Assembly (NCBI GenBank): GCA_964606265.1
Contig: CAZSGL010000002.1
Location: 1-34,423 of the forward strand
Source: an uncultured Anaerolinea sp.
GTDB taxonomy: Bacteria > Chloroflexota > Anaerolineae > Anaerolineales > Anaerolineaceae
Length of the DNA: 34,423 nt
Direction of reading: 5' to 3'
The notes under the pieces were generated by a model that was not told the origin of the DNA, did not search any database, and saw nothing but the letters and a program-made list of their open reading frames with translations. Both the position numbers and the translations under genes were made by a program. The stretch's first letter is position 1. Every line of letters starts with the position of its first letter. Positions 551 to 18,276 of this stretch are shown here, one piece after another.

Positions 551-1740
551 ATACAGACCAGACCCTTCAAATACATGCTTTCCGGGAAACTCATTAATAC
601 CGGATGATCGCCAGCTTGTGATAGCACATCAATCATTTGAATATCAACCCCGGCATCAAGCGCAGCCCCGGAAACGATTTTTTGAAACAGGTCACGTGAA
701 ACTCCACCTGAACAGGAAAAAGTAAAAAGAACTCCACCAGGTCTGAGGAGTTTGAACGCAAGCAAATTTATATCCTTATACCCACGCGCTGCTTTTTCTG
801 CCTTAGAGATAGTCGGCGCAAATTTTGGGGGATCCAAAATGATCACATCAAAGGACTCGGCTTTATCCCGCATGAGTCTGAGTTCCTTGAAGACATCACC
901 GCAAATTGAGGAGCTTTTTCCGCCAATAAAACCATTCTTATTGATATTGATATCCATCTGGTCAATCGCTGGTTGGGAAGAATCAATTGAAGTGACTTTT
1001 TTCGCACCGCCTTTTAATGCATTAAGCGAAAATCCTCCTGTATAGGAAAAGCAGTTCAACACCTCCCTATCCCGGCAGTATTGGCTTAGTTTATGCCTGT
1101 TTTCCCTCTGATCAAGATAGAAACCTGTCTTTTGACCATTTTCAATATCCAAAAAATAATTGATTCCATATTCCTGGATCCAATTCGGTTTTGGCAGTTC
1201 GTCGCCGTGGACTAGACCCGTTCGAGGTGTTAAGCCTTCAAGCAATCTCACATCAACATCAGAACGTTCGTAGATCCGGTTTCCATGGAAAAATGTCTTA
1301 AGAATTTCGCATATTAGTTCTTTGCGCTGTTCAATCCCCACGGAGAGGATCTGGATGACCAGGGTGTCTTTATATTGATCAACTATCAACCCCGGAATGC
1401 CGTCGGATTCACCAAAGACCAGGCGGTAAGAATCCGCATCATCGGATATTATCAATTTTTTCCTTTTTTCAATAGAGGAATGAATTTTGTTAATCAAGTA
1501 TTGTTCATCAATTTTTTCCTCCGCATTCCAGGACCACATACGTGCCCTTATTTGGCTAACTCCTGAATATGCAGCAGTCCCAAGCGCTTCCCCGGTACTT
1601 GACCTTACCAGTATCGTGTCGCCGTCTGATGGGTTACCCTTGATCTCATCAATCGCAGATGCAAATATCCAGGGATGCTTTAATCGCACAGATCTATCCC
1701 TGCCTACACGCAGAATACAACTGGCTAATCTCTCAGTCAC
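544..1740 (-). CDS. rlmI: Class I SAM-dependent rRNA (cytosine-C5) methyltransferase with N-terminal PUA-like domain (RlmI/COG1092 family)
   Basis: 398-aa ORF. Family-typical motifs are present: LDQRENR, VLNCFSYTGGFSL (SAM motif I region) and VIILDPPKFA (DPPxF catalytic motif), with an N-terminal RLKHPWIF PUA-type start. It overlaps the ligA stop by 8 nt, which suggests an operon. Confidence 0.82.
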   Translation of the reverse strand: MTERLASCILRVGRDRSVRLKHPWIFASAIDEIKGNPSDGDTILVRSSTGEALGTAAYSGVSQIRARMWSWNAEEKIDEQYLINKIHSSIEKRKKLIISDDADSYRLVFGESDGIPGLIVDQYKDTLVIQILSVGIEQRKELICEILKTFFHGNRIYERSDVDVRLLEGLTPRTGLVHGDELPKPNWIQEYGINYFLDIENGQKTGFYLDQRENRHKLSQYCRDREVLNCFSYTGGFSLNALKGGAKKVTSIDSSQPAIDQMDININKNGFIGGKSSSICGDVFKELRLMRDKAESFDVIILDPPKFAPTISKAEKAARGYKDINLLAFKLLRPGGVLFTFSCSGGVSRDLFQKIVSGAALDAGVDIQMIDVLSQAGDHPVLMSFPESMYLKGLVCIK

Positions 1741-3757
1741 CCTGGTTCCTCAGTTTCTCCAAAAATGCGCGTTCGTCTAACAAGGAAATTCCCAACAACC
1801 GGGCTTTTTCAAGTTTTGACCCTGCGTTTTCACCTATTACCAAATAATTCGTATTCTTGCTGACAGTATCTGTCACTTTACCGCCAGCATTCTCAATAAG
1901 CTCTTTGGCTTGCTCCCTGGATAAGGTTGGCAATGTTCCGGTTATTACGAAAATTACTCCATTCAAAGGTTTGTTACTAAGATCTATTGTTTCAGTTTTG
2001 TAAGTTGGCCAAACGTCATACATCTTTAATTTAGTGATCAGTCGAGCATTTGGCCCCTGTGAAAACCAGTCGATGATTGCCTGCGCAGTATTAGGTCCCA
2101 CGCCGTCAATCGAAACAAGCTCATCAAAATTTGTTTCTTTTAACCGATCGAGGCTGGTAAATGCCTTTGCAAGTGCAAGTGCTGATACTTCACCAATGCC
2201 ATGAATTCCCAAACCGGTTATTAACTTGGGTAGCGATTGACTTTTGGAAGTGTTAATGGAATTGATAATATTTTCAGCTTTTTTTTGCCCAAATCCTTCC
2301 ATTCCGATTAAATCTGAGGTTTTTAGAATGAAAAGGTCAGCTATGTCCTTAATTTTGCCTTCGTTAATGAGTATTTCAACCATTTTTTCACCCAAACCCA
2401 CAATATCCATAGCCCCTCGCGAAACAAAATGTTCGATATTTCGCACGAGTTGTGCTGGGCAGGTGGTATTAACGCAGTACCAGGCTACTTCATCCGGCAG
2501 GTGTTCAACATCCTGCCCGCAGGAGGGGCATGCAGATGGCGGAGAATAGGGTTGTAAGTCATTACTCCGCGCGCTTATCATGGGACCAATCACATACGGG
2601 ATCACATCTCCGGCTCTTTTGATCAAAACGCGATCCCCGACACGTATATCTTTTTCAGCAATATAGTCAAAATTGTGCAGGGTGGCCTGTTTAACGGTCA
2701 CCCCTCCGATTTCGACAGGCTCAAGTACTGCATACGGTGTCAACACACCGGTTCGCCCTACGTTTACTCGAATTTCCTGGAGTGTAGTGGAAACTTCACG
2801 TGCCGGAAATTTTAATGCAATGGCTCCCCTGGGGTCCTTACCCACAAAACCCAGGTCATCGGCTAACTGCAAATCATTAATTTTTACAACCACTCCATCC
2901 ACTTCATATTGGATGGTATCTCGAATGTCCTTCCATGAATCAATTGAAGTAATCACTTCGGTAAAGCTGTTTTTCAAAACAGCCAATTCCGAGGTTGGGA
3001 ATCCCAGTTCAGCCAGATACTGCAAAAGGCCCCATTGTGTTCTGGGTGGTTCGTCTGAACATTCAATAATCGCATATGTCAACAAAGTTAGAGGTCTGTT
3101 CCTCGTAATGTTTGGATCAAGCTGGCGCAACGACCCTGATGCCGTGTTTCTGGGATTTTGGTAAGTTTTTTCACCATTTTCCTGTAAAATCTCATTCAAC
3201 CGGACAAAATCATCTTTTTTAATAAACACTTCACCGCGTACGATGAGAGTTTCGGGGGGTTTAATTGGCTTGTTGAGAACCGGGATTCGCAGCGGGACAG
3301 ATTTTATCGTTCGAATATTTTCAGTAACATCCTCACCCTGGAGTCCGTCACCTCTGGTAGCCCCTTGAGCCAAAACACCATTTTCGTATCTTAATACCAC
3401 GGTCAAACCATCAATCTTTGGTTCCAGAACGAATCCGGTTGACGTGACTCGACTATCCAACTTTCCAATGCGTTGATACCAATTTTCCAAATCCTTTGTA
3501 TCGAACGCATTCCCTAAAGAAAGTATTGGTGCAGTGTGTTCAACCTTTCTGAACCTGTCCAACGGCTTGCCAAATCCGCGTTGTGTTGGTGAGCTGGAAA
3601 TAATAGCCTCCGGGTGGATCTCTTCCAGCTCCCGCAACCTTCTAAGCTTTATATCGTATTCATAATCGCTGATGGTTGGTTCGTCCAACACATGGTAGCG
3701 ATAATTGTGCTCGCTCAACTCTTTTTGAAGATTTTTAATCTCCTGAAATTCATCCAT
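1733..3757 (-). CDS. ligA: NAD+-dependent DNA ligase
   Basis: 674 aa. It has the adenylation motif EPKIDGL (KxDG), an OB fold, a Cys4 zinc finger (CPSCGQ...YCVNTTCPAQ), HhH repeats (GIHGIGEV, IDGVGPNTA) and a C-terminal BRCT (VITGTLPTLSREQAKELIENAGGKV). Confidence 0.97.
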   Translation of the reverse strand: MDEFQEIKNLQKELSEHNYRYHVLDEPTISDYEYDIKLRRLRELEEIHPEAIISSSPTQRGFGKPLDRFRKVEHTAPILSLGNAFDTKDLENWYQRIGKLDSRVTSTGFVLEPKIDGLTVVLRYENGVLAQGATRGDGLQGEDVTENIRTIKSVPLRIPVLNKPIKPPETLIVRGEVFIKKDDFVRLNEILQENGEKTYQNPRNTASGSLRQLDPNITRNRPLTLLTYAIIECSDEPPRTQWGLLQYLAELGFPTSELAVLKNSFTEVITSIDSWKDIRDTIQYEVDGVVVKINDLQLADDLGFVGKDPRGAIALKFPAREVSTTLQEIRVNVGRTGVLTPYAVLEPVEIGGVTVKQATLHNFDYIAEKDIRVGDRVLIKRAGDVIPYVIGPMISARSNDLQPYSPPSACPSCGQDVEHLPDEVAWYCVNTTCPAQLVRNIEHFVSRGAMDIVGLGEKMVEILINEGKIKDIADLFILKTSDLIGMEGFGQKKAENIINSINTSKSQSLPKLITGLGIHGIGEVSALALAKAFTSLDRLKETNFDELVSIDGVGPNTAQAIIDWFSQGPNARLITKLKMYDVWPTYKTETIDLSNKPLNGVIFVITGTLPTLSREQAKELIENAGGKVTDTVSKNTNYLVIGENAGSKLEKARLLGISLLDERAFLEKLRNQGD

Positions 3758-3858: not shown

Positions 3859-4212
3859 ATGAAAATTATCGCATTCATCGGATCTGGGATACTCGTGCTC
3901 TTTGGCGCATTAATGGTTTTAGGATCAGTTGACCGCACCGGAAATATTATCTGGTTACCAATTGGCCTCGTCCTGATTGGCATCGGACTGGCGATCATCT
4001 TTATTGCTGCCAAGAAAAAACCTATTGCTGACGTTACCAATGTCACATACAATGTAGACCTACCTGGCAACATGAAAGTTGACGAAATCAAGTGCAAATC
4101 CTGCGGAGGGACATTAAGCGCCAAGGATATTACACTGGTTAATGGTGCTCCGATGGTCACATGTCCATTTTGCCATACTGTTTACCAATTCACTGAAGAA
4201 CCAAAGTGGTGA
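3859..4212 (+). CDS. Small two-TM membrane protein with a cytoplasmic C-terminal zinc ribbon (CxxC...CxxC)
   Basis: 117 aa. There are two hydrophobic helices, then AAKKKP (positive-inside), then CKSCGG-x20-CPFCH. SD GAGGTG lies 6 nt upstream of ATG 3859. It is the first gene of the plus-strand cassette. The antisense ORF 3843-4160 is judged a shadow. Confidence 0.72.
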   Translation: MKIIAFIGSGILVLFGALMVLGSVDRTGNIIWLPIGLVLIGIGLAIIFIAAKKKPIADVTNVTYNVDLPGNMKVDEIKCKSCGGTLSAKDITLVNGAPMVTCPFCHTVYQFTEEPKW

Positions 4213-4241
4213 TAGAAGCACTTAATCTTGGGAGGGTAACA

Positions 4242-5951
4242 ATGAGAGTCTACCGCTATATTTGCCTGTTCCTGATTTTTGTTTTACTGGCAGGGAGCAC
4301 TAGCCCCGTTTCTGCCCAGGATTATCGTTTTCAGGTACCTGAACAGGCAGTTGTGGTCACAATCAACTCTGATGGCTCCATCGCAATTGATTACACCATG
4401 AAATTTCTCAATGACTCTGGAGCACACGCCATTGATATCGTAGATATTGGTCTTCCTAATTATGATTACGACCTCAAAACAATTACTGCTGATATTAATG
4501 GCACACCCATCACAAGGATCACAGATTCAGATATTGTCTCTCCCGGAATTTCACTTTATTTACAAAAGAATGAAATCCCGGCAGGTGGATCAGGAATTGT
4601 TCACGCCAATATTGCTGCCGTAAAAAATGTGATCTATCCTGCTACGCAAAATGAATCTGAGGAATACGCCAGCCTAGTTTTTTCTCCCAATTGGTATGAC
4701 AGCCAATATACTCACGGCAATACCACCTACCAGATGACCTTTTTGCTTCCTTCAGGCATGACAGATGCAGAATCACGCTATTTCGTTCCGGAGGGATGGC
4801 CAGGCGCACAAGAACCTGAAAGCAGGATCATGTCGGATGGTCGAATTTTCTATACCTGGGTATCCGATCAGGCGAATAATTATACCCAATACACATTTGG
4901 CGCGAGTTTTCCTTCCCGCTACCTGGCTGAAGGGGTTATTGTTACCGAACCATATGTCCCACCAACCAAACCAACACCATCCTTCGATCTCAGTTCAATT
5001 TGTCCATTCATCTTCTGCCTTGGGTTTGCCGGATTTTTTGTTCTCATCATTTATTCTGCCACATTGGGCGCAAAGAAAAGGAAACTTCAGTACCTACCTC
5101 CCAAGATTTCCATTGAAGGTCACGGGATAAAACGAGGCCTCACCGCCGTAGAAGTAGCGGTTCTCATGGAACAACCCATGGATAAGATATTTACCATGAT
5201 CCTTTTTGGTGTTCTTAAAAAAGAAGCAGCTCAGGTGGTGACGAAAGACCCGTTGGATATCAATCCCACCAGTCCACTCCCTGAAGGGTTGAATGGGTAC
5301 GAGACTGATTTCCTGGCTGGTTTTGCTGAAAAAAATACGGCTGCCAGGCGTAAGCTGCTTCAAGTGGTTATGGTGAATCTGATCCGCGTTGTTGGCGAAA
5401 AAATGAAGGGATTCAGTAAAAAGGAAACCCTCACCTATTATGAATCGATCATGAAGAATGCCTGGACGCAGGTTGAGACCGCCGGAACCCCTGAAGTCAA
5501 AGCACAAGCCTATGAAGAGGTCATGGATTGGACAATGCTGGATAAAAAATACCAGGAACGTACACAGGATACCTTTAGTGGTCCGGTGTTTATTCCAACC
5601 CCGTCCTGGTGGTGGCGCTACGACCCGACCAGTGCGCGTCCAGCCTCAACCAGAGTAACGACAGCCATGCCGCCTGCCATTGGTGGAAAAAGCGTTTCCT
5701 TGCCCTCAATGCCCACCATGCCCGGCTCTACATTTGCTGCGTCGGTGGTTAATAGCGTTTCCACTTTCTCCTCAAGTGTTTTGGGTGGATTAACCGGGTT
5801 TACAAGTGGAGTTACCAACGTCACCAATCCGCCTCCGCCTCCTTCAACATATAGGAGTTCTGGCGGTGGTTCCAGCGGTGGAGGACGATCGTGTGCATGT
5901 GCCTGTGCCTGTGCTGGCTGTGCTTGTGCTTGTGCTGGTGGCGGACGATAA
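4242..5951 (+). CDS. Signal-peptide/one-TM membrane protein, DUF2207-like, with a Gly-rich and alternating Cys-Ala C-terminal tail
   Basis: The preferred start is ATG 4242 (SD GGAGGG at 4231-4236) rather than the track's GTG 4206. The signal peptide is MRVYRYICLFLIFVLLAGSTSPVSA|QDY. It is followed by a beta-rich ectodomain and then a TM helix (ICPFIFCLGFAGFFVLIIYSATLGA) followed by KKRK. The cytoplasmic segment PPKISIEGHGIKRGLTAVEVAVLMEQ... resembles the DUF2207 pattern by eye. The P/S/T/G-rich tail ends PPPPPSTYRSSGGGSSGGGRSCACACACAGCACACAGGGR. Confidence 0.85.
   Translation: MRVYRYICLFLIFVLLAGSTSPVSAQDYRFQVPEQAVVVTINSDGSIAIDYTMKFLNDSGAHAIDIVDIGLPNYDYDLKTITADINGTPITRITDSDIVSPGISLYLQKNEIPAGGSGIVHANIAAVKNVIYPATQNESEEYASLVFSPNWYDSQYTHGNTTYQMTFLLPSGMTDAESRYFVPEGWPGAQEPESRIMSDGRIFYTWVSDQANNYTQYTFGASFPSRYLAEGVIVTEPYVPPTKPTPSFDLSSICPFIFCLGFAGFFVLIIYSATLGAKKRKLQYLPPKISIEGHGIKRGLTAVEVAVLMEQPMDKIFTMILFGVLKKEAAQVVTKDPLDINPTSPLPEGLNGYETDFLAGFAEKNTAARRKLLQVVMVNLIRVVGEKMKGFSKKETLTYYESIMKNAWTQVETAGTPEVKAQAYEEVMDWTMLDKKYQERTQDTFSGPVFIPTPSWWWRYDPTSARPASTRVTTAMPPAIGGKSVSLPSMPTMPGSTFAASVVNSVSTFSSSVLGGLTGFTSGVTNVTNPPPPPSTYRSSGGGSSGGGRSCACACACAGCACACAGGGR
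5892..5936 (+). repeat. Imperfect in-frame hexanucleotide array (TGY-GCN)x7 encoding CACACACAGCACACA
   Basis: The codons are TGT GCA TGT GCC TGT GCC TGT GCT GGC TGT GCT TGT GCT TGT GCT. I translated them codon by codon back from the TAA stop at 5949-5951. Confidence 0.92.
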
Positions 5952-5961
5952 ATTCTGTAAA

Positions 5962-7290
5962 ATGAGCCTTCAATCCAGTTTGCGCACGTTTTTTAAGACT
6001 CCACCTGCAGTGGGTTTACCTTCTACAGGTGTATACCATTTTGTTCATGAATCTGGTGAGGATAAATCGCGCATTCACCTGCGGATTGATGGTGATGGTT
6101 CAGGTGTGATGATCATTAACGCCAACCAGATCTACCATCTGAACCCTACAGCAGCCACCATGTCCTATTTCCACTTGAACCATCTGCCAGTGGAAACCTC
6201 TATTAAGGCATTGAAAACTGCTTTCGATGTGAGTGACGTGGATGCATTAGCAGACTACCAATCTGCCGGCAAGATGATCGATCAACTGATTGATACAAAT
6301 GCCTGCCCGATTTGCGACCTGGACCTCGAAATCAATGCTCCATTTTCTTCTACTCCTACGGCACCATACCGTATGGATCTGGCGATTACTTACCGCTGCA
6401 ACAATGCGTGTGCCCATTGTTATAACGGACGGCCTCGTAACTATCCAGAACTTACTACCAATTCATGGTTCGGGATCCTGGATAAATTATGGGAGATAGG
6501 TATTCCTCACGTGGTATTTACTGGTGGGGAGCCAACATCTCGGGATGATCTTGCATTATTGATTAGACACGCTGAGGAAAAGGGTCAAATAACCGGACTT
6601 AATACAAATGGACGAAAATTAAGCGATGAGACTTATGTGAAATCACTGGTTGATTCGGGATTGGACCATTTACAAATTACTTTTGAATCCGATGTCCCGT
6701 CCATCCATGATGAAATGGTTTGCCACCCGGGTGCGTGGTCACAAACGGTGGCAGGGTTGAAAAATGCGATAAAAAACCATAAATATGTGATGACCAATAC
6801 CACAATGCTTTCGACCAACAAACATACGATACCTGACACATTACGTTTTCTTGGTGACCTGGGGGTTCGAACAGTAGGTTTGAATGCGTTGATCTATTCA
6901 GGTAAAGGCAAAACTGTGGGAACTGGATTGTCAGAAAACGAATTACAAGAACTTTTATCAACAGCCAGGGAAATTATAGAATCGTATGATCAAAGGTTGA
7001 TCTGGTATACCCCGACACAATATTGTAATTTCGATCCAGTAATTAATGACCTGGGGGTTAAGGGTTGTACCGCGGCACTTTACAATATGTGTATCGAACC
7101 TAACGGTGATGTCATTCCGTGTCAATCCTATTACTCTTCGGTCGGCAATTTTCTTTCATCTGATTGGGAAAAGATTTGGAATCACTCTCTTTGTACTTCA
7201 CTTCGAGAACGCAGATATTTGGCTGAAAAATGCAAAGGATGCCTTTTAGTATCAGAGTGCGGTGGTGGTTGCCCTTTGATAGTTGAGTAA
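5962..7290 (+). CDS. Radical SAM/SPASM-domain maturase with an N-terminal PqqD-like RiPP-recognition element (RRE)
   Basis: The start ATG 5962 is supported by collinear alignment with the downstream paralogue (MSLQSSLRTFFK vs MKARIRTFIDN). PqqD-like segment: residues 37-110 (VMIINANQIYHLNPTAATMSYFHL...ADYQSAGKMIDQLI). rSAM cluster motif: YRCNNACAHCYN (CX3CX2C, 6397-6420). GGE motif: VVFTGGEPT. C-terminal SPASM cysteines: CNF...GC...C...C...CKGCLLVSECGGGC (CX2CX5CX3C). Confidence 0.9.
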   Translation: MSLQSSLRTFFKTPPAVGLPSTGVYHFVHESGEDKSRIHLRIDGDGSGVMIINANQIYHLNPTAATMSYFHLNHLPVETSIKALKTAFDVSDVDALADYQSAGKMIDQLIDTNACPICDLDLEINAPFSSTPTAPYRMDLAITYRCNNACAHCYNGRPRNYPELTTNSWFGILDKLWEIGIPHVVFTGGEPTSRDDLALLIRHAEEKGQITGLNTNGRKLSDETYVKSLVDSGLDHLQITFESDVPSIHDEMVCHPGAWSQTVAGLKNAIKNHKYVMTNTTMLSTNKHTIPDTLRFLGDLGVRTVGLNALIYSGKGKTVGTGLSENELQELLSTAREIIESYDQRLIWYTPTQYCNFDPVINDLGVKGCTAALYNMCIEPNGDVIPCQSYYSSVGNFLSSDWEKIWNHSLCTSLRERRYLAEKCKGCLLVSECGGGCPLIVE

Positions 7291-7316
7291 TAATTGGTTC
7301 ATTTCCTGGAGGGAAC

Positions 7317-8495
7317 ATGAAAGCACGAATTCGAACTTTTATTGACAATATTCTCTTTACTCCTAAACCGCTAACTGAGAACAGCTATCAAGGGTTTTTT
7401 CCCCTTCCCGATGGAACAAATTGCAGGTTGCATCTTCGGGTAAACAACGAGGGCGAAGGGATTTTAATCTTAAACGCCAGTACGATTCTCCATTTGAATC
7501 CGAGTGCGACTGAATTTGCCTATCATCTCATCCAGCGCACAGATGAAGATATAATCGTAAAAGAACTGGTTAAGAGATATCAAATATCCGCCTCAGCTGT
7601 AAAATCTGATTATGAGGTTTTTATTGGCAGGTTGGAGTCATTATTAACATCGCCAGACCTTGATCCAGAAAATTTTCTGGATATTGAGCGCATTGATCTC
7701 CACAAAGAACGCTTCTCATCTCCTTTACGCTTAGATTGCGCACTGACATATCAAACCAGTGATGATTCCTCTCCTGCGCTTACACCCGTTGAAAGAGTAA
7801 AAAGGACGCTGGACACCCAGGAATGGAAAAATATTCTACAAAAAGCATGGGATAAAGGCATCCCGCATGTGGTTTTCACCGGCGGCGAGCCAACATTACG
7901 TCCTGATCTTGTGGAACTGATAACATTTTCTGAAGAGATTGGTTTGGTAACGGGATTGCTCACGGATGGCGCACGCCTAACCGATACTGATTACCTCCAT
8001 AGTCTCTTAGCATCAGGTCTCGATCATATAATGATTGTGCTTTACCCAGGAAACCCCGTCTCCTGGGAAGCAATAAAAGATGTGATTAACGAGGACATAT
8101 CGCTCACCGTTCATATTACTGTATCCAGTAACCATACAGTGAATTACCCGAACCTGTTCGAAAAATTGCAGGAATTACAAATAAAAAAGATTTCACTGAG
8201 TGCTGATTCGCTTGATTCCAGTAAGATATTGCCTGAATTGTCACGTAAAGCGCTGGATTATGGTTTATCAATAGTATGGGACCTGCCGGTTCCCTATTCC
8301 GATATCAATCCTATCGCCATGGAGCTTGTTCAAGTTGAAAATTCTCTCAAGGGGGCTGCCCGTTCATGGCTTTACGTGGAACCGGATGGTGATGTTCTGC
8401 CTGGTCAAGGGATTATCTCAGTTCTGGGCAACATTTTGACAGATCCCTGGGAAACTATTTGGTCAGCCGCCAAGTTATGGCAGCATGACTCCTGA
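7317..8495 (+). CDS. Pseudo-radical-SAM paralogue: it keeps the RRE and GGE motifs but lacks the CX3CX2C and all SPASM cysteines
   Basis: 392 aa. SD GGAGGG lies upstream of ATG 7317. It aligns with the upstream rSAM along its whole length (RRE at residues 37-110; GIPHVVFTGGEPT is identical). The cluster-binding site reads LDCALTYQTSDDSS and the C-terminal region has no Cys. There are only 2 Cys in the whole protein. Confidence 0.85.
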   Translation: MKARIRTFIDNILFTPKPLTENSYQGFFPLPDGTNCRLHLRVNNEGEGILILNASTILHLNPSATEFAYHLIQRTDEDIIVKELVKRYQISASAVKSDYEVFIGRLESLLTSPDLDPENFLDIERIDLHKERFSSPLRLDCALTYQTSDDSSPALTPVERVKRTLDTQEWKNILQKAWDKGIPHVVFTGGEPTLRPDLVELITFSEEIGLVTGLLTDGARLTDTDYLHSLLASGLDHIMIVLYPGNPVSWEAIKDVINEDISLTVHITVSSNHTVNYPNLFEKLQELQIKKISLSADSLDSSKILPELSRKALDYGLSIVWDLPVPYSDINPIAMELVQVENSLKGAARSWLYVEPDGDVLPGQGIISVLGNILTDPWETIWSAAKLWQHDS

Positions 8496-9246
8496 ACAAT
8501 CCAATCCTAATTGGAATCAAAGGTTTTCTATTCAAGCAGAATGGACAAAACCACTTCGTCAATTTCTAATTGAACAAACAGGCATGAGCAGTTCTTCCAG
8601 CGTTCTGGAGGTCGGAAGTGGAACAGGTGTAATCCTTCGAGATACGATTGACATGGCTGGCAATCAACCCATTGGAATCGATTTTGATCTCGGGCGGTTG
8701 TCTGAAAATAAGGCAATAAACCCAGATCAAGTTGTTGCCAGCGCTAATGTCTATTTTCTTCCTTTTCCTGTAAATACATTTGATTTCGTCATTTCTCATT
8801 ACTTTTACCTTTGGTTGAAAGATCCTATTCAAGCATTAACCGAAGTAAAAAGGGTTTTGAAACCAGGCGGGCGTGCCATCGCATTTGCTGAGCCTGATTA
8901 CGCTGCAAGGATCGAATACCCTGAATATTTTCAAACATTAGCGGATGCTCAAACCAAATCTCTATTTGTTCAGGGTATCAACCCAAAAACTGGACGTTTA
9001 CTCCCTTCTTTTTTTTCTGGTAGCGGTTTTACCGATATCCAATTTGGAATCTCAGGTTTTCAAATTCCTGTTCAAGAGTTGAGCAAGGATTGGGAGTCAG
9101 AATGGAAAATGCTCGAACACGATTTATCTGGAAATGGTTCGGGCATACAATTAGCTCAATACAAATTAAATGATAAAAAATCCCGTCTTTCTGGCTCAAG
9201 AGTATCCTGGATCCCTACTTTTTATACAATTGGCAAGAAGAATTAA
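8485..9246 (+). CDS. Class I SAM-dependent methyltransferase
   Basis: 253 aa. Motif I is VLEVGSGTGVILRD and the post-I/II region is VLKPGGRAIAFAEPD. The start overlaps the previous gene by 11 nt (ATGACTCCTGA), which suggests translational coupling. Confidence 0.88.
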   Translation: MTPEQSNPNWNQRFSIQAEWTKPLRQFLIEQTGMSSSSSVLEVGSGTGVILRDTIDMAGNQPIGIDFDLGRLSENKAINPDQVVASANVYFLPFPVNTFDFVISHYFYLWLKDPIQALTEVKRVLKPGGRAIAFAEPDYAARIEYPEYFQTLADAQTKSLFVQGINPKTGRLLPSFFSGSGFTDIQFGISGFQIPVQELSKDWESEWKMLEHDLSGNGSGIQLAQYKLNDKKSRLSGSRVSWIPTFYTIGKKN

Positions 9247-9366: not shown

Positions 9367-10710
9367 ATGAAAGGTACACATAAGAAATCAGGCAGGACCC
9401 TGGTTGCTCTTGGTTTTGGCTACCTGGTTGACCAGGGTGAAGGTCAGGCAATGGGTGTATTGTCACCAATCCTCCAGGCAGTCTGGGGAATCAGTTACGG
9501 TGCTATTGGATTGATGGAAACCCTCAGAAACATTGCCCAAACCATTAGCGCTCCGTTGTGGGGTTACGTTGCGGATCGATGGTCTCGAAAGAAAGTACTC
9601 ATCTTTGGAACTGGGGTTTGGGGACTATGGACAATTGCAGTCGGACTCATGCCAAACATTGGTAGTATGACGATTATCCGCGCAATTTCTGGCCTGGGAC
9701 TGGGTTGCCTCATGCCTGCCACCTTTTCATTGCTTGGCGATCATTATCCACAGGAAAAACGCGGGCGTGCTCTAGGCGTGATTGGAGCAGTCGGCGCAAT
9801 TGGGATCGTACTTGGCGTCCTGGCGTTAGGGTTTGTTGCCACACCCGAGCTTTGGCGTTGGGGTTTCATCGGTTTGGGAATCGCCAGCGTTTTAACTGGT
9901 GTGATTATTTGGCTTCTGGTGGAAGAACCTCCACGGGGATCTGCTGAACCTGAACTTGCCGGCCTCGTAACTCGGGAAAACGAAAAAAGATACATGATCA
10001 ACTGGAAGGATGTATTCAGCACGCTACGGATCCCGACGATCTGGGCAGCAATCCTCCAGGGAGTTACTGGTTCCATGCCCTGGGTCGTAATGAGCATTTA
10101 CCTGATCAACTGGTTGGTTAAAGACCTTGGTTTTTCGAACACCATCACATTTTCGCATGTTCGCGGCAGCGCTCCACTGGTTTTTGCCCTGATCGTTATT
10201 GGGACAGCAATCAGCAACTATGTGGGCGGGGTTATTGGTGATTTTGCTGAAAAGAAAAGCCCAAAATATGGCAGGACCATCATCGGTCAATTCTCGGTTC
10301 TGGTGGGAATCCCGTTGACCTATCTACTCTTCACGCAGGGAAAGAATATGACATTCCCTCAAATTCTCGGACTTGCATTTTGCACCGCCCTGCTCATCAG
10401 CTGGCCAGGTCGGGGTGCCAAGGAACCGATGATGCAGGCGATAGTAACACCTGAAATGCGTTCTAGCGCATATTCAGTGGTCAGTCTCATCGAAGGTGGG
10501 CTATCTGCCTTTTCCGGGCTAATCGCTGGTGCCTTGGCCGATAAAATTGGCTTGACCAACGCACTTCTTTGGACAGTTCCCTTTCCCTGGATTCTCTGTG
10601 GTGTGGGCTTTACATTGTTCTACTTCACCTACCCAAAAGACTCTGCTCGCGTTCGTCAGAAATTGGCAGAACGGCGCATTGAATTACTCGATGAACAGGC
10701 AAGCAAGTAG
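9367..10710 (+). CDS. MFS transporter (12-TM type)
   Basis: 447 aa and highly hydrophobic. MFS motif A between TM2 and TM3 is GYVADRWSRKKVL. SD GGAGGG lies upstream of ATG 9367. Confidence 0.92.
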   Translation: MKGTHKKSGRTLVALGFGYLVDQGEGQAMGVLSPILQAVWGISYGAIGLMETLRNIAQTISAPLWGYVADRWSRKKVLIFGTGVWGLWTIAVGLMPNIGSMTIIRAISGLGLGCLMPATFSLLGDHYPQEKRGRALGVIGAVGAIGIVLGVLALGFVATPELWRWGFIGLGIASVLTGVIIWLLVEEPPRGSAEPELAGLVTRENEKRYMINWKDVFSTLRIPTIWAAILQGVTGSMPWVVMSIYLINWLVKDLGFSNTITFSHVRGSAPLVFALIVIGTAISNYVGGVIGDFAEKKSPKYGRTIIGQFSVLVGIPLTYLLFTQGKNMTFPQILGLAFCTALLISWPGRGAKEPMMQAIVTPEMRSSAYSVVSLIEGGLSAFSGLIAGALADKIGLTNALLWTVPFPWILCGVGFTLFYFTYPKDSARVRQKLAERRIELLDEQASK

Positions 10711-10762: not shown

Positions 10763-10839
<77 letters not shown>

Positions 10840-10889: not shown

Positions 10890-12377
10890 TTATCCTGCAA
10901 GCAGTTTAATTCCGTTATTAATCCTATTGAGTACTTTTTCATAACCGATAATTTCCATTGATTCAAATAATGGTGGACTTACCCGTTGCCCCGTTACTGC
11001 TACACGCAATGTACCAAAAACCTGCCCAGCCGATAGACCTTTTTCCTCAGCATAAGTACGGAGATCTGGTTCCAAATCCTTTTTAAATATTGAATTCTTG
11101 CTTAGGATGATTTCCCTCGTCTTTTCTAATACATTTAGGCAGTCCTTACTGTTCATCTCCTTTTGGAGAAGATCCTCTTTAGAATATTCGATTTCATCTT
11201 TGAAAAAGAATCCAGCCATCGGGATAGCTTCATCAAGAGTTGGCAGGCGATCTCGCAATATTGGGGCAATTTTTTCGAGTGTTCCGATATTTGCTTTAAT
11301 CCCTGCTTTTTCGAAAAATGGAATTAATCGGGCTGCCAATTCGCCATTGGACAGATTGCGGATATGTAATCCATTAAAATAATCCAATTTGCTAAAATTT
11401 ATTGCTGCCGGCGAAGGGTTTAATTTCTCCAGGCTAAATTTTTCTACCAAATCATTCATCGTGAAAAACTCAGTTTTGTCGTCGTAACTCCACCCCATTA
11501 ATGCAATCCAGTTGATCACGCCTTCCGGGGTATATCCTAACTCCTTGAAATCTTTTACAAAAATAGAATGACCTTCATTAATTGCATCAGCATCTTCACG
11601 TTTGCTCATCTTCCCTTTACCGCTCGGTTTTAGGAATATCGAGAGGTGAATCCATTCCGGCTCTGGCCATCCAAAAGATCGACAAATCAAGGCATGTAAC
11701 GGTATTGAGGGAATCCATTCGGAACCTCGTATAACGTGGGTGATTTTCATTAGAAAATCATCCACCATGGCAGCAAAATGATATAGTGCCCATCCGTCTG
11801 ATTTCACTAAAATAGAGTCGTCGATAGTGCTGTTTTGGACAGTGATTTCACCCCTGATCAAATCCCGGACAGTGGTTACTCCATCTTGGGGGGACTTGAT
11901 TCTTATGACGTGTTTTTCGCCTTTATCTACCCGGTCGCGCGCATCCTCAAGAGGAATGTTTCTGCACGTTCCATCATAATGAATGGGAAGTTTATTCTTC
12001 ATCTGAGTGTTTCTGACCTCGGATAATCGGTCAGGTGTACAAAAGCAATAAAAAGCGTTACCAGAATCTACCATTTTTCTAGCATATTCCTGGTATATTT
12101 CTTTCCGCTCGGATTGTCGGTATGGTCCGTATGGTCCGCCAACATCCGGACCTTCGTCATATTGAATGTCTAGCCACCTTAGGCCGTCCATCAATTCTTG
12201 TTCGGCTTCAGGCACATACCTTTTTGTATCCGTGTCTTCAATACGTAAAATGAACTGACCCCCTGACTGTTTGGCTACCAGGTAATCATAAAGAGCGGTT
12301 CGTGCACTGCCCAGGTGCATATGTCCTGTAGGTGATGGTGCAAAACGTACTCGAGCAGGTTTAGTGAGTTTATCCAT
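10890..12377 (-). CDS. gltX: Glutamate--tRNA ligase
   Basis: 495 aa. The class I HIGH region is PSPTGHMHLGSARTALY and the KMSKS motif is GKMSKRE. The overall order is GltX-typical (RIEDTD, WLDIQYDEGP). Confidence 0.96.
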   Translation of the reverse strand: MDKLTKPARVRFAPSPTGHMHLGSARTALYDYLVAKQSGGQFILRIEDTDTKRYVPEAEQELMDGLRWLDIQYDEGPDVGGPYGPYRQSERKEIYQEYARKMVDSGNAFYCFCTPDRLSEVRNTQMKNKLPIHYDGTCRNIPLEDARDRVDKGEKHVIRIKSPQDGVTTVRDLIRGEITVQNSTIDDSILVKSDGWALYHFAAMVDDFLMKITHVIRGSEWIPSIPLHALICRSFGWPEPEWIHLSIFLKPSGKGKMSKREDADAINEGHSIFVKDFKELGYTPEGVINWIALMGWSYDDKTEFFTMNDLVEKFSLEKLNPSPAAINFSKLDYFNGLHIRNLSNGELAARLIPFFEKAGIKANIGTLEKIAPILRDRLPTLDEAIPMAGFFFKDEIEYSKEDLLQKEMNSKDCLNVLEKTREIILSKNSIFKKDLEPDLRTYAEEKGLSAGQVFGTLRVAVTGQRVSPPLFESMEIIGYEKVLNRINNGIKLLAG

Positions 12378-12389
12378 GGCTCTCCAATT

Positions 12390-13481
12390 TTATTTTTTCT
12401 GGTGCATTAATACGCTTTCGATCAATCCGATTCCAAGCATTAATGATAACAAAGAACTTCCACCATAACTGATGAACGGCAAAGTTTGCCCCGTTACAGG
12501 GATAACTCGAAGGTTCACTCCGATATTTACCGCTGTTTGGAAAAAGATCAGTGTCGCAAAGCCATATGCAATCATAGCGCCAAAATTATCACCCGCCAAT
12601 CTGGCAGCCCTGATACATCGAATGATGACGAAAACCAACAATGCGATAACTACAGTTGTCCCTACAAACCCAAATTCTTCAGCCATAGCCGAAAAAATGA
12701 AATCTGTATGTCTCACTTTCAGAAATCGCAGCTGTACCTGGGTACCGTGACCGTATCCCTGACCTAACCAACCACCATTTCCTATAGTGATTAAGGCTTG
12801 TTCCACATTATAGGTATTCCCGTGACGTGCCTCAGGATCTGGATTTATAAATGTTAGGATTCGGTCCTGTTGGTATTGTTCTAAGAATGGAAACGCACTA
12901 ACCGCAATCACAAGTGTGGCAATTATTAAAATAACCAGGAACTTATTGGGTAATCCGCTAATCCATAGCATTGAAAACCAGATAACAAATAAAAGGATAG
13001 AAGAGCTGAGATTTGGTTGTAACAAAATTTGTACAACAATCCCTGCAACAAGGAGAAAACTAATCACTACCCAACGAACGTTCTTTTCTCGATATACATT
13101 TTTTGAGAAGTAGTCTGCGAGCACCAAAATTAAAACGATTTTGGCAATTTCAGCTGGTTGAATATTTACTATTCCGACTTCCAACCATCTTTGAGCACCA
13201 AAACTGATTGTTCCCGCTATCAATATTACAGCGAGCAATAAGACGGTGATTGAATAAAACAGTTTTGAGAAGTTTTTCCAGTAGTGGTAATCCACCAGGG
13301 CAGCAATGATTAAAACGCCAAGACCTACCGCAACATATGTGGATTGCCTATTATCAAATCCGGCCAGTTCTGTATTGCCAGCAATAGCTGAGCGGATCAT
13401 TAGCACGCCAAAAAGGCTGAGGAATACTACAGCTCCAAACAGCCAGAAATCAAAATGCTTCCAAAGATCTTTATTAAACAT
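12390..13481 (-). CDS. rodA: SEDS-family peptidoglycan polymerase RodA
   Basis: 363 aa and polytopic. FtsW/RodA signatures are present: HTDFIFSAMAEEFGF, PVTGQTLPFISYGGSS and GNGGWLGQGYGHGTQ. It lies directly downstream of mrdA in the mre cluster. Confidence 0.93.
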   Translation of the reverse strand: MFNKDLWKHFDFWLFGAVVFLSLFGVLMIRSAIAGNTELAGFDNRQSTYVAVGLGVLIIAALVDYHYWKNFSKLFYSITVLLLAVILIAGTISFGAQRWLEVGIVNIQPAEIAKIVLILVLADYFSKNVYREKNVRWVVISFLLVAGIVVQILLQPNLSSSILLFVIWFSMLWISGLPNKFLVILIIATLVIAVSAFPFLEQYQQDRILTFINPDPEARHGNTYNVEQALITIGNGGWLGQGYGHGTQVQLRFLKVRHTDFIFSAMAEEFGFVGTTVVIALLVFVIIRCIRAARLAGDNFGAMIAYGFATLIFFQTAVNIGVNLRVIPVTGQTLPFISYGGSSLLSLMLGIGLIESVLMHQKK

Positions 13482-13499
13482 AATTATTCGATCGTCTGC

Positions 13500-15620
13500 T
13501 TATTGAATGATTTCCTCGCCACCAACTGCGTTAGCAATGTCAATCGCCTTGAGTTCAAAGTAGGCTTGCATCACCTTTCCAACAATTGGAGCTGCCACCG
13601 CGGATCCCTCGGTCCCATTGTACACAAAGGCAATTACAACAATTTCAGGGTCATCATAAGGTGCATAACCCACATACCAAGCGTGAGAAGGCCAGGCTTC
13701 AGGCACACACAAGTTCTTTTCATCGGCAACGTCATCACAATACTCGGCACTTCCCGTTTTTCCAGCAGATGGAACATCAAAATAGACCAGATTGGCAGTC
13801 GCGGTCCCATTGACTACGACTTCACGCATTCCCCTCTGTGCCCATTCGATTACCCACGGTTCAACTACTTTTTTCTCCCCTGTCGGTTTGTTGTTTTCAT
13901 CCAGGATATCAATCAAAGGATCTTTAGTAATATCCCAGACCAACTTTGGCCCCTGCTGATAGATTACATTACCTTTATCATCTTTAATTTCAGGAACAAC
14001 ATTTCCATTTGAATCCACAACTTCTTTTACCAGTGTCGGCTGCATGTAAATGCCATCATTTGCTAAAATCGCAAATGACTGCAAAACCTGCAGCGGAGTT
14101 GCCAACACATATCCTTGCCCAATCGTAGTAATGTACGTGTCACCGGTTGCCCAGTTTTCTGCCCGGTAAATTCTTTTCCATGTGGGATCAGGTATCAATC
14201 CCTCTACTTCATAGGGCAGTTCAATGCCAGACAACCGCCCATAACCCAAAGCTTCTGCATACTCCTTGGCTCTCCAGGGTCCTAATCCTCCATCTGGAAT
14301 TTCATCTTCGAAACCACCGCCAATTTTGTAAAAATAAATATCATCTGATAAACCAACTCCTTTTACAAAATTACACATACCGTGACCACCACGATCATAT
14401 CCAACATATTCTCGCGGAATACCCGGCTCATTTGCGCTGTATTTCTGGATGATGGAGATGGTTCCAGGGCACTCGATCTGTCGTTCCGGTGTGATGACCC
14501 CTTCATTCAAAGCACCTATGGCGGCTACCATCTTATACACTGATCCAGGGGGATGCATTGCGGAGACTGCATGATTTAACATAGGATGAAGTGGATCCTC
14601 AGAAAGTTGATAATAATAATACGCAGGGATAATCCTCTCCAACCGATTATTTTCATACGTCGGTTCAGATACCATGGCTAATATCTCGCCATTTTTTGGA
14701 TTCATTACGATAACTACCCCATTCTGCGATTTAATCGTTCCTAACCAGTTATTCCAAAATTTTATTTCGTCCTGGAGAATGGTTTTTGCAGCCTTTTGTA
14801 AACGTGAATCTATCGTAAGTTTGACTGTATAACCAGGGATTGATTCAATTGGCGCCTCAACATCCTTGATTTCTTTCCCTGCGTTATCAACTTCGACAAC
14901 TCTCGAGCCATTCTCTCCTATAAGGAGATCGTCCAATGAGTATTCAATACCTGCAAAACCTACCTTATCTCTTCCAGGTACAAAACCTTTTTCAACGTAA
15001 TAGCTCTGGTTTTCAACAGTAATCGGTCCAAGGAACCCGATTATCTCTGATGTCAATGAACCAGTTGGGTATTGTCGCACAGATTCTACTTCAATTGAGA
15101 CTCCTGGCCAGTCGTTCTGTTTTTCTCTTATTACTCGAGCCAGCAAATCATCAATATTACATTTAATTTTTACAGGTTGGAATGGCGCGTTAGTATCACC
15201 AATAATCACGATTTCTTTAATTCCAAAATCTGTTTCACAAGGAGTAAAAGTTGTTGCAGATTCGTCATTTAGAGCTCCGTTGGTCACAGGAATATCAATC
15301 AACTCCGAGAGTTCGCGGAAGATTGTTTCTGTTGTTCCAATATCTACAGGCAAATTAGCTGGCGTGATGGAGACATCAAATGAAGGCGCATTTTGAGCAA
15401 GGATAAACCCATTCCGGTCCAGGATTTTTCCACGTGTAGTTTGAACACTAATATTCTTTAGTCGGTTCTCTTCAGCTTGTGATGTATAAAGTGAACTATT
15501 TACAATTTGTAACGAAAAAAGACGAAAAATGTAAAAAATAAAGACGGCACCTACAATAGCGTAGATAACCTTAAACCTCCATTTTTCAAATCCATTAGTC
15601 ACATCCTGGTTTTTAATCAT
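13500..15620 (-). CDS. mrdA: Penicillin-binding protein 2 (elongasome transpeptidase)
   Basis: 706 aa with an N-terminal TM anchor. The transpeptidase motifs are SVYK (SxxK), SDD (the SxD variant typical of PBP2) and KTGSAE (KTG). It lies between mreD and rodA. Confidence 0.94.
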   Translation of the reverse strand: MIKNQDVTNGFEKWRFKVIYAIVGAVFIFYIFRLFSLQIVNSSLYTSQAEENRLKNISVQTTRGKILDRNGFILAQNAPSFDVSITPANLPVDIGTTETIFRELSELIDIPVTNGALNDESATTFTPCETDFGIKEIVIIGDTNAPFQPVKIKCNIDDLLARVIREKQNDWPGVSIEVESVRQYPTGSLTSEIIGFLGPITVENQSYYVEKGFVPGRDKVGFAGIEYSLDDLLIGENGSRVVEVDNAGKEIKDVEAPIESIPGYTVKLTIDSRLQKAAKTILQDEIKFWNNWLGTIKSQNGVVIVMNPKNGEILAMVSEPTYENNRLERIIPAYYYYQLSEDPLHPMLNHAVSAMHPPGSVYKMVAAIGALNEGVITPERQIECPGTISIIQKYSANEPGIPREYVGYDRGGHGMCNFVKGVGLSDDIYFYKIGGGFEDEIPDGGLGPWRAKEYAEALGYGRLSGIELPYEVEGLIPDPTWKRIYRAENWATGDTYITTIGQGYVLATPLQVLQSFAILANDGIYMQPTLVKEVVDSNGNVVPEIKDDKGNVIYQQGPKLVWDITKDPLIDILDENNKPTGEKKVVEPWVIEWAQRGMREVVVNGTATANLVYFDVPSAGKTGSAEYCDDVADEKNLCVPEAWPSHAWYVGYAPYDDPEIVVIAFVYNGTEGSAVAAPIVGKVMQAYFELKAIDIANAVGGEEIIQ

Positions 15621-16113
15621 TTTCTATCTCCGTATAAACCATGGAACTTAAATCTTTGGCGATTAGGTAAATCGGAAATGCGATCACCAGATTTAGGATC
15701 GTTGAGGGAATGATAATACGTTGTACTGCATCAACCCACGACGTATTAATACCGATTATTTTTAGAGCGGCAAAGTGAATTAGATAATTACTGGCACTAC
15801 CAAGGATCAGTACAACAAAGAATGAAAGCAGTGGTGATTGCCACAACCTTTTTTTCATAAAATATCCAAATAGAAATATTACAGAATAACCAATTAAGAT
15901 CGCATACCAGGGTACAGCGGAAATGAAAGCAGTCATGATTATTGCAAGTACAAACCATATCCAGCTTTTTTTAACACGTGATTGGATTACCCAGGCTGTT
16001 AGCCATACCAGGATAAAGTCAGCGAATCCATCCAGTAGTAAAAACTTGCTGCTAATTGTTATTTGAATACTTAATAAGATTAAGAGTATTGGGATTGCTA
16101 ATAAGTGAATCAT
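15613..16113 (-). CDS. mreD: Rod shape-determining protein MreD
   Basis: 166-aa polytopic hydrophobic protein between mreC and mrdA. Its stop overlaps the mrdA start by 8 nt. The call rests mainly on position and hydropathy. Confidence 0.82.
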   Translation of the reverse strand: MIHLLAIPILLILLSIQITISSKFLLLDGFADFILVWLTAWVIQSRVKKSWIWFVLAIIMTAFISAVPWYAILIGYSVIFLFGYFMKKRLWQSPLLSFFVVLILGSASNYLIHFAALKIIGINTSWVDAVQRIIIPSTILNLVIAFPIYLIAKDLSSMVYTEIEND

Positions 16114-18203: not shown

Positions 18204-18276
18204 GCGGGTGTCGCCAAGTGGTAAGGCAGTACCTTCCCAAGGTACCATTCCGTGGGTTCGAATCCCATCACCCGCT
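18204..18276 (+). tRNA. tRNA-Gly (anticodon CCC)
   Basis: The acceptor is GCGGGTG/CACCCGC, the anticodon stem GTACC/GGTAC with loop U-U-CCC-A-A, and the T arm GTGGG-TTCGAAT-CCCAT. The discriminator is U. CCA is not encoded. Confidence 0.9.

Follow-up and report, generated by a model that had tools for sequence, protein, structure and literature searches.

Why would a bacterial lineage keep, next to a radical S-adenosylmethionine (SAM) enzyme of the active type, a second copy of that enzyme from which every iron–sulfur ligand is missing? The question is raised by a stretch of DNA of 34,423 nucleotides (the window) from an uncultured Anaerolinea sp. (contig CAZSGL010000002.1). Gene A (5962..7290, forward strand) encodes a 442-residue maturase composed of a recognition element for peptides that are made by ribosomes and modified after translation (RiPP recognition element, RRE), a radical SAM domain and a SPASM domain, with the CX3CX2C motif at C146/C150/C153 and the full set of SPASM cysteines. 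Gene B (7317..8495, forward strand) encodes its paralogue, a protein of 392 residues with an RRE, a degenerate radical SAM barrel, a truncated SPASM remnant and no cluster. Both belong to the S-P-A-B-M "Cys-Ala tail" cassette (3859-9246), a term defined in this analysis for the association of a B-type protein with an active A, a methyltransferase M of class I and a membrane protein P that ends in CACACACAGCACACAGGGR; the genes of the window have all of these, preceded by a small membrane protein, S. P is the presumed substrate of the modification system. We consider that B is probably a non-catalytic hub for substrate docking, which was duplicated from A inside an older S-P-A-M cassette.

Loss of the cluster ligands and of most SAM-binding motifs

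BLASTP aligns A and B from end to end, from the RRE to the SPASM hairpin, with 31% identity over 380 columns (E 4e-55), as expected from the collinearity claimed in a preliminary description of the locus. The claim that B has lost every Fe-S ligand also stands: the Cys triad and the SPASM cysteines are absent, and B contains exactly two cysteines (C36 and C141), hence none after residue 141, compared to 15 in A, including C146/C150/C153. In a family-level alignment of 82 A and 70 B sequences, the three Cys ligands of the cluster loop of A, RMDLAITYRCNNACAHCYN, are all replaced at the matching site of B, RLDCALTYQTSDDSSPALT (residues 138-156; 7728..7784, forward strand), and so is every auxiliary-cluster cysteine. 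The 13-residue block GIPHVVFTGGEPT, which contains the GGE motif and starts at residue 180 of A and 181 of B (7857..7895, forward strand), is identical in the two proteins, and 9 of its 13 codons differ, synonymously, just as had been noted.

B had been called a full-length paralogue. It does align with A along its length, but it has two internal deletions and ends about 50 residues early. Relative to the A family, one deletion of about 10 residues takes out the ES..IHD segment, which may be read as the ribose-binding motif, another of about 14 residues takes out the LIYSGKGKTVGTGL loop, and the C-terminus stops ahead of the CX2CX5CX3C half of SPASM. Residues 301-392 (8217..8492, forward strand) are a Cys-free remnant of the bridging region and of the first SPASM half (DLPVPYS..NP, WLYVEPDGDVLPGQG, LGN..D.W..IW). 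Of the five classical SAM-binding elements, GGE alone (FTGGEPT) can still be recognised in B; the ES..IHD segment is deleted and the GXIXGXXE/beta6 region is not recognisable.

A comparison with Pfam profiles, which had been proposed as a check, gives a partial match of B to Radical_SAM (PF04055; 52.3 bits for a cut-off of 29.5), restricted to residues 158-240 and profile positions 21-107. The score with SPASM (PF13186) is 15 bits, below the cut-off of 21.5, and the seven-Cys pattern for two auxiliary clusters is not found. The corresponding scores of A are 84 and 36 bits. Both proteins fall below the equivalog cut-off of the PqqE model TIGR02109 (381 bits; 70.5 for B and 117.9 for A). Judged by its sequence, B has lost most of its SAM-binding motifs and can bind none of the three [4Fe-4S] clusters; it is therefore incapable of radical chemistry.

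The linker between the RRE and the barrel is distinctive in each protein. A has an invariant Cys115 (CPICDL, residues 115-120, 6304-6321), B has an invariant DLDP at the matching place (residues 113-117, 7653-7667), and a mixed form, D[VI]CP, is found in the A proteins of the basal lineages without B described below.

Distribution of B and selection

A database search for B lists 120 homologues, 52-100% identical, nearly all of which have 376-401 residues. A genome scan with the alignment of A finds relatives in the genomes of 315 species; the best 80 loci are all from Anaerolineales or Chloroflexota, among them Bellilinea caldifistulae GOMI-1, Leptolinea, Villigracilis and metagenome-assembled genomes of Anaerolinea. 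Where the flanking sequence is long enough, B is found downstream of A in 73 of about 76 Anaerolineales loci. The CX3CX2C motif occurs in none of the 120 listed database homologues of B and in none of the 73 genome orthologues. The latter all end just past WLYVEPDGDVLPxQG...LGN..D.W..IW, and 72 of them have the sequence R[LIM]DCA[LIV]TY. The order S-P-A-B-M is kept in at least 70 genome loci and in divergent metagenome loci, within Anaerolineales and beyond.

The ratio of nonsynonymous to synonymous substitutions (dN/dS) was calculated by the Nei-Gojobori method for close species pairs, leaving aside as saturated those in which dN was high but dS seemed low. It amounts to 0.03-0.115 for B, which equals the values of A (0.03-0.12) and of ligA (0.03-0.09), and to 0.13-0.20 for M. 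This indicates that B is an old gene which is maintained by purifying selection and is not decaying, as had been proposed from the codons of GIPHVVFTGGEPT.

Two variants can be mentioned here. A B homologue of 510 residues (P0053, 55% identical) has an extra N-terminal segment of about 120 residues resembling several transmembrane helices, and may be a membrane-anchored form or the product of a mis-called start. In a rearranged locus (L156), P is directly followed by B, then by an A-like gene inverted on the opposite strand, then by M.

Predicted fold and recognition elements

The AlphaFold model of B, built from 79 sequences, has a predicted local distance difference test score (pLDDT) of 80 and a predicted template modelling score of 0.80. 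It consists of an RRE (strands in residues 22-60, helices in residues 62-111), a beta/alpha barrel (residues 138-296) and a C-terminal hairpin. The best Foldseek matches in the PDB are PqqE, SkfB and SuiB (E 1e-10 to 1e-9), followed by BlsE, AbmM, EpeE and MoaA, and a profile search of the PDB sequences agrees on these relatives. The model and the Foldseek matches both indicate the partial (beta/alpha)6 triosephosphate isomerase barrel of the superfamily. B is thus predicted to be a folded, cofactor-less relative of the RRE-radical SAM-SPASM peptide maturases.

The PqqD-like RRE of B (residues 22-111; 7380..7649, forward strand) is modelled as four beta-strands followed by three helices, with a pLDDT of 79-92. 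The Pfam model PqqD (PF05402) matches residues 51-108 with 26.8 bits, above the cut-off of 23.4. Of the B orthologues it matches 75 of 79, and of those of A, 24 of 34; the A protein of the window itself, to which the preliminary description had also assigned an RRE, gives no match at E<=0.1. Because the model is matched in both families, the system has two genuine RREs, one in A and one in B.

Origin and stepwise degeneration of B

The loci used to trace the origin of B come from a substrate-centred sample, metagenome contigs that were found through the DNA pattern of the tail of P. Where a sampled locus has a full A followed by 1.5 kb or more of sequence, B is present in 33 cases and absent in nine. 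One of these nine (L100) and two shorter contigs (L110 and L153) are compact P-A-M operons. The loci without B (L100, L110, L153, L106/L130 and L160) either have the methyltransferase immediately after A or have neither B nor M in the vicinity. A neighbour-joining tree of A, which is rough and based on distances only, places the operons without B at its base; an intermediate clade shows both states, and a large crown clade has B almost uniformly.

Two B forms of the intermediate clade (L107 and L171) lack the Cys triad, the SPASM cysteines and the C-terminus, and keep the beta4 segment of A. That of L107 (about +1376..+2599 after the tail) contains no cysteine at all. With the A of L107, the form of L107 shares 42% identity and that of L171 39%; with other active relatives the values are 31-34%. 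The B of the window is about equally distant from several active families (around 31% identity). The basal operons without B, and intermediates whose nearest relative is the neighbouring A, therefore argue that B was duplicated from A. From these comparisons B appears to have arisen inside an existing P-A-M system, to have lost its clusters, and then to have degenerated stepwise.

The crown proteins can be compared, domain by domain, with the A of the basal lineages without B. Crown B is 38% identical to it in the RRE, 46% in the N-terminal half of the barrel and 28% in the C-terminal part, compared to 35%, 61% and 47% for crown A. Compared to the working maturase, B has thus diverged faster in its catalytic parts but not in its RRE. 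An ancestor with two active twins was considered and rejected: the nearest other active relative, P0153, is found in an unrelated, apparently archaeal context.

The existence of P-A-M operons implies that B is an accessory add-on, which is not needed for radical chemistry. Clusters lacking the second copy had been named in the preliminary description as a finding that would refute its view of B. Such clusters do exist, in the basal part of the tree; the crown loci almost uniformly keep B.

B-like proteins without clusters reach far beyond the Anaerolineales type, as shown by a profile search of 1.8 billion representative proteins. Some of the distant ones lack GGE (FFGGDPT, FCGTEPT or FLDVPEE are found instead) and the EPDGDV hairpin. 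The most divergent still keep the RRE core YRLHLRVEPDGxGxLIxNAS.VLHLN.TA.E.A. Separately, a set of RRE-bearing radical SAM-like proteins has lost CX3CX2C independently (P0180, P0183, P0184, P0192, P0200, P0202 and positions 1786-3108 of L088). Some of these triad-less relatives keep SPASM cysteines; P0200 follows a membrane protein of 566 residues without a Cys tail, and has no active radical SAM enzyme next to it.

The Cys-Ala tail of P

P (4206..5951, forward strand) has 581 residues, arranged as a signal/transmembrane segment, an outer domain, a transmembrane segment, a cytoplasmic domain, a Gly/Ser-rich spacer and the Cys-Ala tail. The core of the tail, CACACACAGCACACAGGGR (5892..5948, forward strand), forms the very C-terminus and consists of 19 residues, in which seven cysteines alternate with seven alanines. 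P is kept in all related loci. The tail is identical in 71 of 73 species and in the divergent loci L084-L086, and remains unchanged in the same cassette of distant lineages where B falls to 30-39% identity. Its degenerate DNA pattern is found in at least 120 metagenome contigs. This conservation is far above that of the rest of P. Two further conserved segments, LPGxxFAASxV and FTxxVTNxTNPPP, precede the tail. One may speculate that the radical chemistry of A forms thioether cross-links in the tail, seven cysteines with seven alanines.

Gene spacing and rate covariation

Of 83 loci, 65 have A and B side by side; in most, the gap is 23-64 bp. B and M are adjacent in 66 of 76 loci, where the genes usually overlap by 7-21 nt. 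In the window, M (8485..9246, forward strand; 253 residues; Pfam Methyltransf_11/25) overlaps the end of B by 11 nt. Five loci (L035, L037, L058, L061 and L069) have A and B split with B and M kept together, and the reverse is never seen among the loci examined for spacing. Unrelated genes, spanning 1.1-3.6 kb, lie between A and B in about 15 genome loci. The genes inserted at either junction, A/B or B/M, were rejected as added components of the system, since they are unrelated and differ between lineages (e.g., PAS-like and other open reading frames in L039, and an M20 peptidase, lipid-synthesis genes and PAP2 in L069). In L053, L073 and L080, neither B nor M is found within the 4-6 kb covered downstream. 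The sole candidate for a B–M fusion (P0160) was rejected because its sequence is garbled and frameshifted.

Mirror-tree partial correlations of evolutionary distances were calculated for 55 species, with a bootstrap over species. The strongest covariation of S is with P (0.64). The values for B are 0.48 with A, 0.45 with M and 0.33 with P (confidence interval 0.19-0.46), and the remaining pairs give 0.29 (A-M), 0.08 (P-A) and -0.09 (P-M). This suggests, indirectly, that B is the sole enzyme-like component which covaries with P, and that it links A with M. The overlap and the covariation together would tie B to M and P at least as closely as to A.

Proposed role of B

As said above, B is probably a docking hub. 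Selection would keep its PqqD-like RRE and its folded, cofactor-less barrel. The RRE would bind a conserved segment of P just ahead of CACACACAGCACACAGGGR, for which the P-B covariation and an RRE that is no more diverged than that of A give indirect support, and the dead barrel would serve as a docking platform. B would thereby hold the tail and couple it both to A, for the radical modification of the Cys/Ala repeat, and to M, which would be co-translated with B and has no recognition domain of its own. B would thus be an accessory which improves or organises maturation. The preliminary description had cautiously proposed a chaperone, a scaffold or a heterodimer subunit. A non-catalytic partner of this kind remains the best explanation of what we see, but a simple A–B heterodimer may be too narrow.

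Several observations weigh against docking on B. A has an RRE of its own, going by the 24 of 34 orthologues matched by PqqD, so that a second one is not obviously needed, and the operons without B show that A and M can both work without it. The two conserved motifs ahead of the tail are present in loci with and without B, and neither can be assigned to B specifically; for the same reason, the idea that two RREs serve two motifs is unsupported. Within Anaerolineales, the barrel of B is about as conserved as the RRE (54% and 49%, respectively) and many of its polar residues are invariant, which leaves room for a lineage-specific ligand or activity. Last, the evidence from mirror-tree correlations is of an indirect kind, and rate variation shared by the genes can affect it.

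A broader proposal, which we regard as rather doubtful, is that the cassette is not a natural-product pathway but a lineage-wide housekeeping machine, which matures the cytoplasmic tail of a membrane protein (e.g., by cross-linking seven cysteines with seven alanines), and in which B evolved for its purpose from a dead radical SAM barrel, as a clamp for the substrate or a processivity subunit, and hands the tail from A to M. If this were true, the set formed by P0180, P0183, P0184, P0192, P0200 and P0202 would make dead radical SAM adaptors a recurrent and overlooked class.

It is unlikely that B is instead an obligate structural subunit, such that in the crown lineages an A–B heterodimer is the sole active maturase and A depends on B, for example on an RRE of ancestral type. 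The descent of B from A, the close spacing of the two genes in most loci and the slightly greater similarity of the RRE of B to the basal type (38%, compared to 35% for crown A) fit with this possibility, and so does the A-B covariation (0.48), the highest of all pairs apart from S-P. However, P-A-M operons without B exist, the two genes are separated by unrelated ones in about 15 loci, and A keeps a conserved RRE. The solved RRE-radical SAM-SPASM maturases are described as monomers, which also counts against a heterodimer.

We find it distinctly unlikely that B has acquired a new, non-radical activity in the former SAM and cluster pocket, be it a catalysis acting on the modified tail or the binding of a ligand, as a sensor of SAM or S-adenosylhomocysteine would do. 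Residues D140, C141, Y145, H184, E191, D236, H237, D260, H266, S293 and S295 are invariant within Anaerolineales, GGE is kept, and dN/dS is as low as that of a true enzyme, all of which could be signs of such an activity. But divergent B-like proteins with the same cassette and tail do not conserve most of these polar residues. In a comparison of 19 diverse B-like proteins, Gly, Pro and Leu account for most of the invariant positions, and the only polar ones are R41 and H237. P0135, P0136 and the L107 form have no C141, which was therefore rejected as a catalytic residue of the whole family, and GGE is lost in several members. This argues against a new active site at the level of the family, as does the loss of four of the five SAM-binding elements.

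It is very unlikely that B is a regulator or a decoy, competing with A for the recognition sequence and thereby timing or limiting the modification of the tail, or protecting the unmodified tail. Competition with an active paralogue is a common role of pseudoenzymes, and B keeps an RRE homologous to that of A. However, co-transcription and translational coupling within the maturation operon point to a fixed stoichiometry and not to regulated expression, and it is difficult to see why a pure competitor of A should covary with M.

The possibility that the gene is a duplicate in decay, the product of a sequencing or frameshift error, or an open reading frame called wrongly can be dismissed, since nothing beyond the missing motifs speaks for it and it is refuted by the intact, motif-less reading frames of 376-401 residues in almost all of the 120 listed homologues and 73 orthologues, by the low dN/dS and by a good ribosome-binding site (GGAGGGA, 5 nt upstream of the ATG); the frameshifts and the neutral decay which the preliminary description had envisaged are thus not observed.

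Comparison with known systems

TIGR04347, the "pseudo-SAM/SPASM protein" of NCBIfam, is, like B, a maintained homologue of radical SAM/SPASM enzymes without clusters. This curated family of halophilic archaea is named for its missing cluster-binding chemistry, and is the precedent for maintained pseudo-radical SAM proteins. B is not a member: it scores 42.1 bits, for a cut-off of 525, over residues 158-240 only. In the TIGR04347 profile, the radical SAM core starts at about position 44, too early for an RRE to precede it as one does in B. Unlike TIGR04347, B also has a truncated SPASM region, an active twin alongside and a bacterial cassette.

PqqE with PqqD, SkfB and SuiB, the best matches in both sequence and structure, have the same domain order and fold as B (a PqqD-like RRE, a partial barrel and a SPASM-type C-terminus). 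These enzymes cleave SAM and carry two or three Fe-S clusters, whereas B lacks all the ligands.

Dead paralogues that serve as RRE partners occur in RiPP biosynthesis, e.g., the E1-like "C protein" or Ocin-ThiF-like partner of YcaO cyclodehydratases, and the stand-alone PqqD, MftB and lasso B1. These non-catalytic partners bind the precursor and present it to the catalytic enzyme or enzymes. The role proposed for B resembles theirs, in a different superfamily. In the case of B, the adaptor would be a degenerate copy of the radical SAM enzyme itself, the catalytic enzyme A keeps an RRE, and the substrate would be the tail of a membrane protein of about 580 residues instead of a short precursor peptide.

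The HXS system is superficially similar in that two adjacent genes of the radical SAM family (HxsB/HxsC) occur with a small accessory protein and a larger, repeat-bearing effector. This effector, whose repeats are short, is matured in the cytoplasm (PMC13128918). HxsB and HxsC both need their cluster cysteines and are both catalytic (PMC13128918), unlike B. The repeats are His-Xaa-Ser in HXS and Cys-Ala in the tail of P. A scores 65.5 bits with the HxsC model, for a cut-off of 268, and HxsC is not among the 25 best NCBIfam matches of B.

None of the five proteins S, P, A, B and M reaches the cut-off of any NCBIfam model. P has no match in the Pfam and NCBIfam scans, S has weak zinc-ribbon matches only, and neither belongs to a Pfam or NCBIfam family. 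PADLOC returns nothing specific for the cassette; its similarity is to generic viperin/radical SAM proteins only, and a link with defence was rejected. Full-text literature searches found no description of the B family, the tail, the cassette or pseudo-radical SAM partners, nor does a review of radical SAM/SPASM proteins contain any of the terms sought; no dedicated family model was found either. The tail-maturation system as a whole therefore appears to be undescribed; it would be a protein-tail modification system of hundreds of Anaerolineae species, with an invariant target of 19 residues.

Homologues of B are automatically annotated as "radical SAM protein" or "PqqD family chaperone". Because of such labels, neither enzyme counts nor genome mining reveal pseudo-radical SAM proteins. 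The steps that lead from the active enzyme to a cluster-less, A-like form, then to a truncated form and to one resembling an RRE alone form a dated series, whose members all share one operon and one invariant substrate. Together with the natural controls without B and with a cultured host, Bellilinea caldifistulae GOMI-1 (locus L051), it makes a clean system in which to ask why a dead radical SAM barrel is kept.

Other genes of the locus

The cassette opens with S (3859..4212, forward strand), which shares 7 nt with P and is found upstream of it in 76 of 83 loci. S encodes a small membrane protein of 117 residues with two transmembrane helices and a C-terminal CxxC...CxxC zinc ribbon.

The cassette is flanked by ligA (1733-3757, reverse strand) and by gltX-rodA/ftsW-PBP2-(mreD-like) genes (10890-16113, reverse strand). 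ligA is the upstream neighbour in at least 39 related loci, and MreB is nearby in L086. The neighbourhood is a stable chromosomal one, of the housekeeping type, and not a mobile gene cluster. The window also contains a tmRNA gene (125-519, 160 bits) and two tRNA genes (10763-10837 and 18204-18276).

A transporter of the major facilitator superfamily (9367..10710, forward strand; Pfam MFS_1) follows M. It is an accessory neighbour, outside the core of the cassette, and is found in a minority of related loci only. The protein is 98% identical to its counterpart in L003, where the adjoining genes are 77-87% identical, which could reflect a recent exchange or an unusually strong constraint.

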